Below, in pieces: positions 6,320-30,498 of a DNA stretch of 64,000 bases. The position numbers and the translations under genes are program-made. The notes below the pieces were generated by a model, which worked only from the letters and a program-made list of their open reading frames with translations, ran no database searches and was not told where the DNA came from. The first letter of the stretch is position 1. Every line of letters starts with the position of its first letter. This DNA comes from an uncultured Candidatus Saccharibacteria bacterium (GTDB taxonomy: Bacteria > Patescibacteriota > Saccharimonadia > Saccharimonadales > Saccharimonadaceae). The DNA lies in the NCBI GenBank assembly GCA_947304395.1, contig CAMZBA010000002.1, positions 48,593 through 112,592 of the forward strand, written 5' to 3'.

Positions 6320-8077
6320 ATGGGAAAAATCAAAGCGATATTGTTCGCTGTCTTTTTAGCAACGGCTTCAATATTATTTGCCGTCACCAATACTTACGCT
6401 AATGAGGTCTGCGTCGCAGCCGGCGTCAGCGATCCAATCTTATGCGGAAATCACAACTCAAATGAAGAGAGAGAGCTAATAAACCGCACAAGCAACGTGC
6501 TTAGCGTCGTATATACATTCATCGGCATAGCGGCAGTAGTAGTAATTATTATCGGCTCTATAATCCTAATGACATCCAGCGGCTCGCCCGAAAAAGTCCA
6601 AACAGCAAAAAGGGCCATCTTGTACGCCATTCTTGGCCTCGTAGTTACACTTTCGGCATTTGCCGCGACGACATTAACCATAAACGCACTAGAGGGCAAC
6701 ACGCAAACCTCAGCTGCCGACGACGAAAAAATAAGGCAGCGAAACACCGAGCACGCTAAGGTTAGAGCTATTTCAGCCATTAATGAAACGACGATACTTA
6801 TCGACCAAAGCATAACACTTAAGCCAGTAGTAATTCCAGATTATGCAGAAAATAAGAGCCTATCATACAAGACCAGTGACGCCAGTATTGTAACCGTAGA
6901 CGAGAATGGAAAAGTTACCCCGAAAAAAGTTGGCGATGTGACTATAACAATCATATCCGCAGATGGCCCAACAAAAGACGTAAAAGTACACGTCGTTAAA
7001 CCAATTTCCGTCGAAAAAATCAATATCAATCCCACAGCCCTCACCTTGAGCATTGGCAAAACCGCCACAATAAGAGCCGAGGCATTGCCGCGAAACGCCC
7101 TAGATAGGACCATTACTTGGACTAGCAGTAACCCGCAATCCGTCACGGTAACTCAAACCGGAGAAATAAAAGCAGTTGGATCCGGAAAAGCCACAATCAT
7201 TGTCGCCTCAAAGGATAAATCTGTCACAGCTACCGCATTAGTAACCGTACAGGGCGGCGGGGACGGCTCTCTAGAAACCGAACCTGCACCAGTAGGCAAA
7301 AAGGCACCCAAAAACCTAGATTTTAGAGCCGCTACGCGTAAAATTATTAACCAACACAAGAAAGACTTTGACTGGTGTAACTACGAATCAAAAATCAAAG
7401 AACTTGGCGGATACACGGCCTATATCAAGAGTCTTGGCGGAATCTTTGCGGATAACGTAAATAAGAAATTTAAAGTGAAAACCGCCGCAGAGCTACAATA
7501 TGCAGCAGAGTACGTCTGGGGGCTCTGGACAATTTGGGGGCCAGATTATGATAATGGCAATACATATCACAAGTGGGGTCTTGGCGCGGCCGACGGCTTC
7601 CACAATTGCCATGGCGACCGTCATGCCGGCTCTGGCTACTCGCAGGCAGAAATTAATGATTTGTTATCTAAAAAGAAAAAAGTGCGCACAAACTGTAATG
7701 CATCCCAAACAACATTCAATAAAACAACTGACTTATTCCAAATCGACTCTACGAGGTTTAAAGCTCAAACAAAGATGAGTCCAGTCGGCAGAATTACTAA
7801 GACTAACCAACTTCAGGTTGGCGACTGGGTGCACTTCTTTAGGCAGCCAGGCTACGCGAAATGGGGGCACGTTGCTATGGTGGGTGAAGTATACGATGAT
7901 TATGTCATAATTTACGAAGGCGGAGGCCGCTTCGTAAAATCAACTTATTTTAAACACAAGCTCAAACGCTCGGGCGACGGCAAACTTAGCGATAGCTACT
8001 CCCACTATAAATCATGGTTCGGCGTTAGGCCGTTCAAGATTGATCAAAGCGTATATCTAAAAGGCATGAACCCATGA
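6320..8077 (+). CDS. surface protein: signal peptide, VirB2/TrbC-like double-TM hairpin, 2x Big_2, C-terminal NlpC/P60-like papain-fold hydrolase
   Basis: Signal peptide, a Cys pair (CVAAGVSDPILCGN), two TM helices separated by SSGSPEKVQTAKRA, and two Ig-like Big_2 repeats (VTPKKVGDVTITIIS; IKAVGSGKATIIVAS). The C-terminus has candidate Cys (RTNCNASQ) and His (GDWVHFF...WGHVAMVGEV). Confidence 0.65.
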   Translation: MGKIKAILFAVFLATASILFAVTNTYANEVCVAAGVSDPILCGNHNSNEERELINRTSNVLSVVYTFIGIAAVVVIIIGSIILMTSSGSPEKVQTAKRAILYAILGLVVTLSAFAATTLTINALEGNTQTSAADDEKIRQRNTEHAKVRAISAINETTILIDQSITLKPVVIPDYAENKSLSYKTSDASIVTVDENGKVTPKKVGDVTITIISADGPTKDVKVHVVKPISVEKININPTALTLSIGKTATIRAEALPRNALDRTITWTSSNPQSVTVTQTGEIKAVGSGKATIIVASKDKSVTATALVTVQGGGDGSLETEPAPVGKKAPKNLDFRAATRKIINQHKKDFDWCNYESKIKELGGYTAYIKSLGGIFADNVNKKFKVKTAAELQYAAEYVWGLWTIWGPDYDNGNTYHKWGLGAADGFHNCHGDRHAGSGYSQAEINDLLSKKKKVRTNCNASQTTFNKTTDLFQIDSTRFKAQTKMSPVGRITKTNQLQVGDWVHFFRQPGYAKWGHVAMVGEVYDDYVIIYEGGGRFVKSTYFKHKLKRSGDGKLSDSYSHYKSWFGVRPFKIDQSVYLKGMNP

Positions 8078-8598
8078 AAACGAATACAAATAATAAAATT
8101 AATCTAATAACACCAATCATTATCAGTGTCGTCGCGATCGCTGTCGTAATAGTTACTTGCATAATCCTAGTAAACATTAATTCAAAGAATATAGAAGCCG
8201 TGATTCGCGAAGCCATTGACTCGGGAATCCTTGAAAAAGACTATTCACCCCTAATGAAGCTCAGCAAAGAACTAATCGGGCAAAAAGTCTTCCTAGACGA
8301 CGCCGAAGAAAAATTTTCAAACGAAGAAGACTTATTCGACTTCTATGTCTCGGAAAACAACGGCTATATTGCAGATAAAAGTTCGAGCGAAAGAATTACA
8401 TTCGACATTATTATCGAAGAAGCAGACGCGCCACCTACCTTAATTGATTTCGTTTATCACGAAACTATCGGCGACAATGATTCTTTCGTCATGAAAACAA
8501 GCGAAAACACTTTCCAACATTTTAATGGTTACGTTACTAATGAGTTCAATAATCTTGACGAAGCCCTAAGGGATCATCTAATCGTAAGGGAGGATTAG
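8074..8598 (+). CDS. small single-pass membrane protein, family S (C-terminal FQHFNG..EF..LDEA..DH motif)
   Basis: ATGA overlap with the upstream gene. N-terminal TM helix. C-terminus reads IDFVYHE...NTFQHFNGYVTNEFNNLDEALRDHL. Confidence 0.75.
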   Translation: MKTNTNNKINLITPIIISVVAIAVVIVTCIILVNINSKNIEAVIREAIDSGILEKDYSPLMKLSKELIGQKVFLDDAEEKFSNEEDLFDFYVSENNGYIADKSSSERITFDIIIEEADAPPTLIDFVYHETIGDNDSFVMKTSENTFQHFNGYVTNEFNNLDEALRDHLIVRED

Positions 8599-8602
8599 CT
8601 AC

Positions 8603-29781: not shown

Positions 29782-29799
29782 TAGTTAATAAGGAGTCAC

Positions 29800-30498
29800 A
29801 TGGATAATAATCAAGTCATTCAGACGCCAACGTCTTTTAACCAACAAGCGGTACCGGCGAATGCCCAAAACAACAATAACAAGCATGCCGGCCTCAAAGT
29901 TGCTGCCATTCTGATATCTATCGTCCTGGTCGTCATCGCCAGCATCGTTACGATTACTATTCTCACAAAACCAACCCCGCCAGCGGAACCACCCAAAACC
30001 GGCGACGAAGATGGCGAGGATTATCATCCGTTCGCTTCTGGGCGCAAAATCTTCGCAGACAACGAAGAGCTCGATAAAGATTACAGCGACAAATACGACA
30101 AGATGACCAAATTCTACCTCGAGCTAAACGAAGAGATGACCTTCGATCAACTCAAAACGCTTGCTAGTTCGCACGGCTTCGACTCCGTCAAGGCCAATGG
30201 CGACAATGGCAGTATCAGCCTCGGCGAACTAGTCTTCGTCAAATTCGACGTCACCGAGAAAAATGGCACTCAAATGGTCAGCCGCTACACCCTCAACCGC
30301 GAGATGAACGGCCACGAGGATATCCGCTTTGTTGTTCCGCTAGACGAAGACGGCAAGTATGAGTACTATAACGGTATCGATTACGTCACCTACAGCAGTC
30401 GCAAGCGCGCCGTCAACGCCTTCATTCTCGATCTTGAAGAGGCCCCAGTAAAGAACACCAACACTGGCAACGACGACTACGAGCCAGAAGAGAATTGA
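29800..30498 (+). CDS. small single-pass membrane protein, family S (divergent), acidic tail
   Basis: AAGGAG SD and a TM helix (VAAILISIVLVVIASIVTITIL). C-terminus reads GSISLGELVFVKFDV...GKYEYYNGIDYVTYSSRKRAVNAFILDL. Confidence 0.7.
   Translation: MDNNQVIQTPTSFNQQAVPANAQNNNNKHAGLKVAAILISIVLVVIASIVTITILTKPTPPAEPPKTGDEDGEDYHPFASGRKIFADNEELDKDYSDKYDKMTKFYLELNEEMTFDQLKTLASSHGFDSVKANGDNGSISLGELVFVKFDVTEKNGTQMVSRYTLNREMNGHEDIRFVVPLDEDGKYEYYNGIDYVTYSSRKRAVNAFILDLEEAPVKNTNTGNDDYEPEEN

Follow-up and report, generated by a model that had tools for sequence, protein, structure and literature searches.

A family of small membrane proteins among large genes

Saccharibacteria and other bacteria of the Candidate Phyla Radiation (CPR) live attached to host bacteria. 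To our knowledge, how CPR bacteria recognize, breach and exploit their hosts is largely unknown, and most of the candidate genes are unannotated. Here we analyzed a 64,000-nucleotide (nt) chromosomal stretch (the window) of a rumen Candidatus Saccharibacteria genome (Nanosyncoccaceae-like), whose nearest public relatives are all rumen Saccharibacteria metagenome-assembled genomes (MAGs). An earlier reading made from the letters alone (the sequence-only reading) had proposed that six small open reading frames (ORFs) in this window, which we call members A to F, form one family of single-pass proteins coupled to large neighbors. We confirmed all six ORFs at the coordinates given below and found that, between strains, the outward-facing domain of one member is exchanged together with the head of its large neighbor.

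The first half of the locus begins with a string of genes on the forward strand. The first encodes a putative hydrolase (hydrolase 1; 6320..8077, +; 585 amino acids, aa), and its stop codon is overlapped by 4 nt (ATGA) by the start of member A (8074..8598, +; 174 aa). Member B (8603..9196, +; 197 aa) follows after 4 nt; it has a GTG start and a strong AAGGGAGGA Shine-Dalgarno sequence, and F is closest to it. The next gene encodes a small acidic single-pass protein that is not in the family and has an FxLYD domain (9255..9992, +; 245 aa); it overlaps the start of hydrolase 2 (9989..11908, +; 639 aa) by 4 nt. Hydrolase 2 is a paralog of hydrolase 1 (37% identity over the full length) and is followed after 1 nt by member C (11910..12404, +; 164 aa), and a strong terminator-like hairpin (12419..12445, +; 12-bp stem, then a T run) ends the string hyd1-A-B-9255-hyd2-C. 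On the reverse strand, a secreted protein with Big_2 and GH114 domains (12485..14941, -; 818 aa) has no family member as a partner; another non-family small acidic single-pass protein (14931..15395, -; 154 aa) is encoded upstream of it.

Further along the forward strand, member D (15525..16415, +; 296 aa, long type) ends 2 nt ahead of giant 1 (16418..20893, +; 1491 aa), which has a GTG start and a signal peptide and is rich in N, S, T and G. Member E (25008..25604, +; 198 aa) ends 1 nt ahead of giant 2 (25606..29781, +; 1391 aa; ATG start), a soluble protein with a net charge of -61, and member F (29800..30498, +; 232 aa) lies 18 nt beyond giant 2. The close spacing that the sequence-only reading had described is present at each of these junctions, and this spacing suggests the translational coupling that it had also proposed.

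The six ORFs are paralogous type-II membrane proteins

We compared all 240 window ORFs of at least 50 aa with each other using phmmer and found that the six ORFs are linked into one family (A-E, 1e-30; C-E, 2e-18; A-C, 1e-8), with weaker links for A-D (4e-8), A-B (4e-5) and B-F (2e-6). When searched against all window ORFs, a hidden Markov model (HMM) of the C-terminal domain found no seventh member (next best ORF, E = 0.17), and hhalign comparisons of the ORFs at 9255, 14931, 30668, 24108 and 21673 with the family were negative (probability 0.2% for 9255..9992). The family motif as originally read, [FY]xH[FY]NG-x4-EF-x3-[DE]EA-x2-DH, is found in A, C and E, and degenerate forms of it are found in B, D and F.

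Each window member has exactly one transmembrane (TM) segment, the N-terminal helix that had been predicted, and a single TM segment is present in 81 of the 81 full-length members of the wider family described below. In this wider family, the 15-residue flanks contain a mean of 3.6 Lys and Arg residues before the TM segment as compared to 1.6 after it; this bias indicates an N-in/C-out topology with the C-terminal domain facing outward. The dN/dS values of the six members against three related genomes range from 0.03 to 0.18 (0.07-0.11 for A), indicating that all six are real genes under purifying selection. We conclude that the six ORFs are paralogs that encode type-II (N-in/C-out) membrane proteins.

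The family is confined to Saccharibacteria

We searched 1.84 billion representative proteins exhaustively with a profile of the family (E < 1e-3) and obtained 79 hits, two of which were repeat-protein false positives, leaving ~77 real clusters. A word-indexed homolog search recovered near-orthologs only; the family is visible only by the exhaustive profile search. The real hits are 105-314 aa long and carry the domain at the C-terminus in all cases. Short forms (160-230 aa) consist of a basic N-terminus, the TM helix and the domain, and in long forms (~290-315 aa, D-like) a conserved linear motif at the N-terminus and a K/E-rich stretch ahead of the TM helix are added. Every hit with a name belongs to Candidatus Saccharibacteria, and there were no relatives from other CPR lineages or Actinobacteria among the profile search hits, nor did these hits bring up a well-characterized domain. 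A phage origin was rejected because there were no relatives in viral contigs. We searched the literature and found no description of the family. The family is thus confined to Saccharibacteria and previously undescribed.

The ectodomain is predicted to be a compact acidic module

With an alignment of the six paralogs only, AlphaFold2 predicted the ectodomain of A with a mean predicted local distance difference test (pLDDT) score of 90.6 and a predicted template modeling (pTM) score of 0.85. In this model, two or three short helices lead into seven consecutive antiparallel strands, and a helix forms the C-terminus. The ectodomain of full-length D (modeled with 11 long-type sequences) was predicted with pLDDT > 92 and has the same topology as that of A; residues 1-78 of this model are disordered, and one long helix runs through the K/E-rich segment and continues as the TM helix. 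Across the family, the ectodomain is ~125 aa long and acidic, with a mean net charge of -14.6 and an isoelectric point of 4.4 (the net charge of A is -18). The conserved columns of the family are core hydrophobic residues and Gly, and there is no catalytic-looking invariant residue; together with the compact alpha/beta model, this fits a binding module and does not fit an enzyme. Most likely, the ectodomain serves to bind another protein.

The sequence-only reading did not recognize this domain, and the databases that we searched did not either. There was no Pfam match for any of the six members and no consistent match among 62 members scanned individually, and profile searches gave no match in NCBIfam, PHROGs or PDB sequences. 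With Foldseek, the A and D models had no match in the PDB and the A model had none in BFVD (nothing below E = 0.1). Hits to p32/C1QBP (MAM33), YwmB, the beta-clamp and LolA were rejected as noise (TM-score at most 0.31, E at least 0.1, probability at most 0.44), and there was no significant superposition on the p32/MAM33 fold (best TMq 0.31, E = 0.13). What p32/C1QBP, YwmB and LolA have in common with the family is not evidence of homology: the domain is acidic and alpha+beta, and its successive antiparallel strands pack on the terminal helices. From the PDB and BFVD comparison, the status of the fold is 'no solved relative' and not 'new fold'.

The disordered cytoplasmic part of the long type (15525-15760, residues 1-78 of D, and homologs) carries the linear motif SPNI ... 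DG.PI.E.DI.F.S.DI ... LFV.VEGA, with the K/E-rich helix next to it. This motif is likely a docking site for a cytoplasmic factor. We considered an anti-sigma factor for the long type and rejected it, since this part is disordered and has no anti-sigma Pfam hit; no sigma factor gene lies next to a D-type gene among the annotated genes (window genes were scanned with Pfam and ORFs of the other loci were compared with window proteins only).

Members pair with large neighbors in divergent genomes

Members in divergent genomes are 25-45% identical to those of the window and keep the pairing. Homologs of hydrolase 1 (6320-8077) with the same PF18895 T4SS_pilin, Big_2 and papain-like C-terminal domains are followed by a member within 0-8 nt at L008, L010, L011, L022, L024 and L028, and this arrangement occurs twice at L028. 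Two members follow one putative effector in tandem at L010 and L028, as A and B do in the window. One distant member ends 13 nt ahead of an 841-aa Peptidase_M15_4 protein, a 1480-aa adhesin-type protein (L004; DUF285, Flg_new, VWA, SHIRT, DUF11) is followed by another member with a 61-aa ORF between them, and E-like members lie ahead of 1011-aa membrane proteins. These 1011-aa, 1480-aa and 841-aa partners are unrelated to window proteins, and giants 1 and 2 are unrelated to each other; no element is shared among the partners. The E-giant 2-F triad is kept at L030 at 63% identity, which is the only diverged giant-2 homolog that we found.

Partner type tracks subfamily in the long type, which is always found with giant-1 homologs: all distinct long-type members lie directly ahead of one (~9 distinct modules, down to ~25% identity). 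This D-type and giant-1 module is present in one copy in the window and is tandemly duplicated at L012 and L017.

To quantify adjacency, we compared family members with other small ORFs at the same non-redundant loci. A same-strand neighbor of at least 400 aa lies within 60 nt of 18 of the 23 members as compared to 16 of the 99 other ORFs of 100-330 aa (Fisher p = 2e-8; the ORF maps are crude and the loci were chosen via the family). The pairing of one large with one small protein noted in the sequence-only reading is therefore real and recurs in divergent genomes, where homologs are preferentially adjacent to large proteins. The partners are also as heterogeneous as had been thought, comprising papain-like hydrolases, a Peptidase_M15_4 protein, the adhesin-like 1480-aa protein, 1011-aa membrane proteins, giant 1 and giant 2. 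The claim that every giant or secreted protein in the block has a member beside it was too broad, as the GH114 protein is paired with the unrelated small acidic TM protein at 14931-15395; hydrolase 2 is indeed followed by member C, but it is also preceded by the unrelated FxLYD protein at 9255-9992. Nor are all partners secreted, since giant 2 has no export signal.

Some family sequences depart from these arrangements. In P0061 (105 aa), the signal peptide and Cys-rich N-terminus of a pilin-hydrolase are fused to the ~55 C-terminal residues of a P0021-like family member; this protein is a deletion or a chimera, and it shows, as an independent sign, the adjacency of these genes in another lineage. 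In the RUI495 MAG (L005:1-2253 compared with window 24832-30496) there is a clean 3.4-kb deletion inside giant 2 (25964-29378 missing) with E and F intact, and in P0004, E and F are fused at a shared 'LDE' with no giant 2 between them. These are either deletion variants that arose via the flanking paralogs or assembly collapses. At a distant locus with a family member (L026:1751-2287), a CdiA_C toxin-domain protein, HipA_C and HIRAN proteins are encoded within 5 kb, which suggests that regions around family members collect conflict genes.

Partner proteins in the window

Hydrolases 1 and 2 share one layout (signal peptide, VirB2-like hairpin, two Big_2 domains) and end in a basic domain of ~260-295 aa, the net charge of which is +17 in hydrolase 1 and +8 in hydrolase 2. 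Hydrolase 1 matches the Pfam families T4SS_pilin (6e-10) and Big_2 (2e-23) and the NCBIfam family Mbov_0395 pilin-like (8.5e-11). Across 10 hydrolase homologs, the C-terminal domain has an invariant Cys (R-T/G-N-C-N; RTNCN in hydrolase 1; Cys135) and an invariant His (W-x-H-V-A-x-V-G-E-V; His193), and Pfam scores are below gathering for NLPC_P60 (E = 0.0018), CHAP (0.057, faint) and Peptidase_C39_2 (weak). Judging from these residues and matches, hydrolases 1 and 2 are probably papain-like (NlpC/P60-CHAP-like) wall hydrolases.

The proteins at 6320-8077 and 9989-11908 each combine a PF18895 pilin hairpin, two Big_2 domains and a papain-like domain and are in effect a VirB2-VirB1-like fusion; most genomes with VirB2 homologs in this lineage are reported to be without VirB1 (PMC12102498). 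At L022/L023, the homolog is split into a pilin gene (179 aa) and a Big_2 gene (400 aa).

Giant 1 has no recognized domain and no wall-anchor motif, and its dN/dS of 0.31 is high as compared to 0.03-0.19 for the other block genes (window 16418-20893 compared with L006/L012). Giant 2 has neither a signal peptide nor a TM segment; its C-terminal GS...DxD motif and a sub-threshold SMODS hit (E = 0.01) make it a candidate nucleotidyltransferase.

The small non-family proteins at 9255-9992 (+) and 14931-15395 (-) are unrelated and abut the starts of hydrolase 2 and the GH114 protein from upstream, overlapping them. The first matches the NCBIfam FxLYD family (1.8e-7) and has a net charge of -15, and the second has a net charge of -12. 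In this block, at least three unrelated families thus supply a small, acidic and tethered protein next to a secreted enzyme.

The D ectodomain and the head of giant 1 form a strain-variable cassette

When we compared the window with sister strains, we found that DNA identity is 87-93% across the block except between ~16122 and ~18322, where there is no blastn homology. This hypervariable cassette (16122..18322, +), delimited by blastn breakpoints and per-region identities, covers the D ectodomain and the first ~635 codons of giant 1. Its left breakpoint lies inside D at codon ~199, which is ~30 codons into the ectodomain, and the right one falls near codon 635 of giant 1. At the protein level, the K/E segment of D is ~90% identical between the window and sister strains and the ectodomain is 26-47% identical; residues 1-600 of giant 1 are 25-50% identical and residues 700-1491 are 87-99% identical. 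The D-type protein of L012 is 87% identical to window D at the N-terminus and 44% identical in the ectodomain, indicating that it is a mosaic. The D ectodomain and the giant-1 head (~600 residues) are therefore inherited and replaced as one cassette between strains.

This co-replacement points to allele-specific cognate pairing as opposed to a generic helper, and it is the strongest argument that a member and its neighbor form a cognate pair. The sequence-only reading had favored a generic role because the partners are heterogeneous; the heterogeneity stands, but the D-type and giant-1 cassette argues against the conclusion that was drawn from it.

A proposed role as cognate membrane-tethered binders

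Our best-supported reading, still tentative, is that the family is a cognate membrane-tethered binder of the adjacent encoded domain and acts as a holdase, an inhibitor or a dock. The small and the large protein would be made from the same transcript, and at the outward side of the membrane the small protein would bind the adjacent-encoded domain of its large neighbor. For A and C, the target would be the basic catalytic domain at the C-terminus of the pilin-Big_2-hydrolase proteins, and for D it would be the variable N-terminal ~600 residues of giant 1. Such binding may keep the domain at the membrane, so that a hydrolase is held off the producer's own peptidoglycan or a variable adhesin head is helped to fold or dock.

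We infer the physical binding, the domain that is bound and the consequence of binding from several observations. Of the two ends of the large gene, it is always the one next to the family gene that codes for the domain proposed to be bound. The single TM segment and the positive-inside bias in 81 of 81 members place the ectodomain where exported partners emerge. The acidic ectodomains and the basic hydrolase domains are complementary in charge; together with the outward topology, this agrees with a holdase or inhibitor that acts in cis on enzymes anchored beside the producer's wall. The cassette is consistent with a variable head that has a matched chaperone or dock. Immunity, chaperone, anchor and export roles cannot be separated on in silico evidence.

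Known systems offer partial parallels. In the SleB-YpeB system of Bacillus, a lytic enzyme and a membrane-anchored PepSY partner are encoded in one operon. As at our locus, a hydrolase gene is followed by the gene for an N-terminally anchored extracytoplasmic partner, which is presumed to stabilize or restrain the enzyme; in contrast, our family has no PepSY domain and has a predicted topology of helix-helix, seven strands and helix. A PepSY/YpeB-type partner was rejected because there was no PepSY hit in the 62 members scanned. Variable two-gene cassettes are known from cdiA-CT/cdiI, from Rhs-CT/RhsI and from phage tail-fiber tips with their Tfa chaperone (e.g. the Mu G segment). In these systems too, a hypervariable stretch crosses a gene boundary, and the end of the large protein and the interacting part of its small neighbor are exchanged together. 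Here, however, the large protein varies at its N-terminus, the small gene is upstream, and the small protein is tethered and mosaic (its cytoplasmic part is conserved and its ectodomain is swapped). A small cognate partner beside a polymorphic exported protein is thus familiar; the protein family, the mosaic upstream geometry and the CPR context are new.

Several points weigh against the cognate binder. The main difficulty for any extracellular model is giant 2: it lacks an export signal and is strongly acidic too, and extracellular binding by E and F would be possible only if it were released via a non-Sec route. The A/E-like subfamily adjoins unrelated partners (hydrolases, giant 2 and 1011-aa membrane proteins), which is unexpected for a binder of high specificity. 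The same slots by hydrolase 2 and the GH114 protein are taken by small acidic TM proteins unrelated to the family, and the role may therefore rest on charge and tethering more than on the fold. The member at L026 has no large same-strand neighbor. Lastly, a contiguous variable cassette could alternatively result from shared surface exposure of the two proteins and the same diversifying selection.

Alternative explanations

The small proteins might instead be immunity proteins of a polymorphic-toxin system, in which the neighbors are antibacterial effectors and the small proteins shield the producer and its kin from incoming copies at the cell surface; we consider this unlikely. The hydrolase-type domains that members adjoin belong to at least two catalytic classes (papain-like and Peptidase_M15_4), but other neighbors are not obviously toxins: no toxin domain was recognized in giant 1, giant 2 is cytoplasmic-looking, and the L004 partner is adhesin-type (DUF285, VWA, SHIRT). 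The variable cassette spans partner and small gene in a cdiA-CT/cdiI-like manner; however, the variable region of giant 1 is N-terminal and the small gene is upstream, the mirror image of known polymorphic toxins. The tethered ectodomain is in the correct compartment for a wall-acting toxin, the small protein is acidic and the enzyme basic, and members occur in tandem after one effector (A and B; L010, L028), yet no orphan immunity arrays were seen and no known immunity family was matched (no hit above noise to Imm, SUKH, Tai, Tsi or similar families in Pfam, NCBIfam or PHROGs).

Pairs of wall-hydrolase effectors and immunity proteins include Tae/Tai and Tse/Tsi of type VI secretion systems and TelC-TipC of the streptococcal type VII secretion system, and membrane-anchored immunity is known in monoderms. 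The family resembles these pairs in that a small gene lies beside a wall-hydrolase gene, its product is in the enzyme-facing compartment, an acidic protein is set against a basic one and both diverge fast. It differs from them in that there is no match by sequence or fold, homologous small proteins occur with unrelated partners including non-enzymes, and there is no toxin-export system at the locus. If the small proteins were only immunity-like inhibitors of wall hydrolases, the family would be novel and its role familiar.

It is also doubtful that there is no physical partnership and that members are independent small surface proteins (e.g. a charged coat or spacer) encoded in envelope operons, with shared regulation and diversifying selection. 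High gene density makes short intergenic gaps common, but adjacency is enriched in members over other small ORFs. One subfamily adjoins unrelated neighbors, E and F flank a protein without an export signal, and the L026 member stands without a large same-strand neighbor; against this, the association of D-type members with giant 1 is strict across ~9 modules down to ~25% identity, and the two genes are co-duplicated as a unit. Unrelated small acidic TM proteins in equivalent slots would also agree with independence, whereas the breakpoints of the cassette lie inside both genes and not at the gene borders.

A role as accessory subunits of a type IV secretion system (T4SS) or VirB2-like pilus, in which members would be the 'non-pilin genes' of pilin arrays and serve as assembly or base factors for pilin fusions, is improbable: short members most often come after PF18895 T4SS_pilin proteins and a single TM segment with an ectodomain recalls VirB8-like components, but there is no VirB4, VirB6 or VirD4 gene in the window, no NTF2/VirB8 match by Pfam or Foldseek, and D-type members, E, F and the P0097 member pair with non-pilin proteins. 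Specifically, A, B, C and the members at L022, L024 and L028 follow PF18895-positive proteins, and D, E, F and the P0097 member do not. With ~77 clusters, the family also has a much more restricted distribution than the T4SS, which nearly all Patescibacteria have (PMC12102498), and genomes with VirB2 arrays outside these rumen lineages apparently are generally without it. VirB2-like pilin arrays have been described in Patescibacteria (PMC12102498), and a pilin array is essential in Southlakia epibionticum (PMC10633639). The likeness to these arrays is that A, B and C lie in a string of PF18895 genes split by non-pilin genes on a Saccharibacteria chromosome; the difference is that here the PF18895 proteins are 585-639-aa fusions with Big_2 and papain-like domains as compared to ~100-aa pilins, that no T4SS core genes are nearby, and that the intervening genes of the arrays have not been described as a family.

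Other candidates were rejected. A T4SS cluster was dismissed because core T4SS genes are not in the window, and VirB8-like proteins (PrgL/TcpC/TraM type) because there was no Pfam VirB8/NTF2 hit, no NTF2-like Foldseek hit and no VirB4/VirB6 in the window. Type IV pilins and pseudopilins do not fit, as the N-termini (e.g. MKKKSVIITSSVV..., ...NSFIKPIIISAII...) of the six members and of the 32 listed hits lack the G|F..E motif, and a hit to the PDB 'Pilin' entry 9p0a (E = 0.14) is compositional. A class III holin (T4 T-like) was rejected because the hydrolases carry their own signal peptides, there is no PHROGs hit and there are no relatives in viral contigs.

Implications for epibiont-host interaction

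The family marks a recurrent module that consists of a large envelope protein and a matched small tethered partner. The genes of this module, VirB2-like-pilin/hydrolase fusions and giant surface proteins, are of the classes expected at the epibiont-host interface. The strain-variable cassette provides a testable handle on the specificity of host range or of self-protection, and the family HMM provides an annotation rule for such loci in metagenomes.

A further reading, more speculative and on present evidence unlikely, is that the family represents a lineage-specific fold without a detectable relative and occurs in allele-matched pairs with host-interaction proteins of rumen Saccharibacteria. 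The cassette of D ectodomain and giant-1 head would then be a specificity module that sets which host cells are attached to or attacked, and the tethered partner would be the matched lock, chaperone or inhibitor for each head allele. If this were true, it would be a novel polymorphic surface system in CPR bacteria, in which the partner is upstream and itself mosaic.

Neighboring genes in the window

The left flank of the window contains housekeeping genes (a Trp/Tyr-type tRNA synthetase, an RluA-type pseudouridine synthase and DNA polymerase III delta'), and the right flank is a polysaccharide-synthesis cluster. Between giant 1 and member E, a 475-aa acidic protein (22318-23745) matches the MATCAP (microtubule-associated tyrosine carboxypeptidase) metallopeptidase family (E = 1.5e-11), and its gene is flanked by tRNA-Thr (22163-22238) and tRNA-Tyr (24662-24747). 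Downstream of F, a basic 225-aa protein (30668-31345) with no Pfam match and no signal peptide consists of ~20-residue leucine-rich-repeat-like repeats with a recurring 'C-P-x-(I/L/V)-x-x-L-P'. Further along are genes for a 552-aa caspase-domain (Peptidase_C14) protein (43713-45371, -) and a 564-aa KAP-family P-loop NTPase (58204-59898, +); these two, which lie amid many ORFs without a family match in a very small genome, are possible conflict or defense genes.

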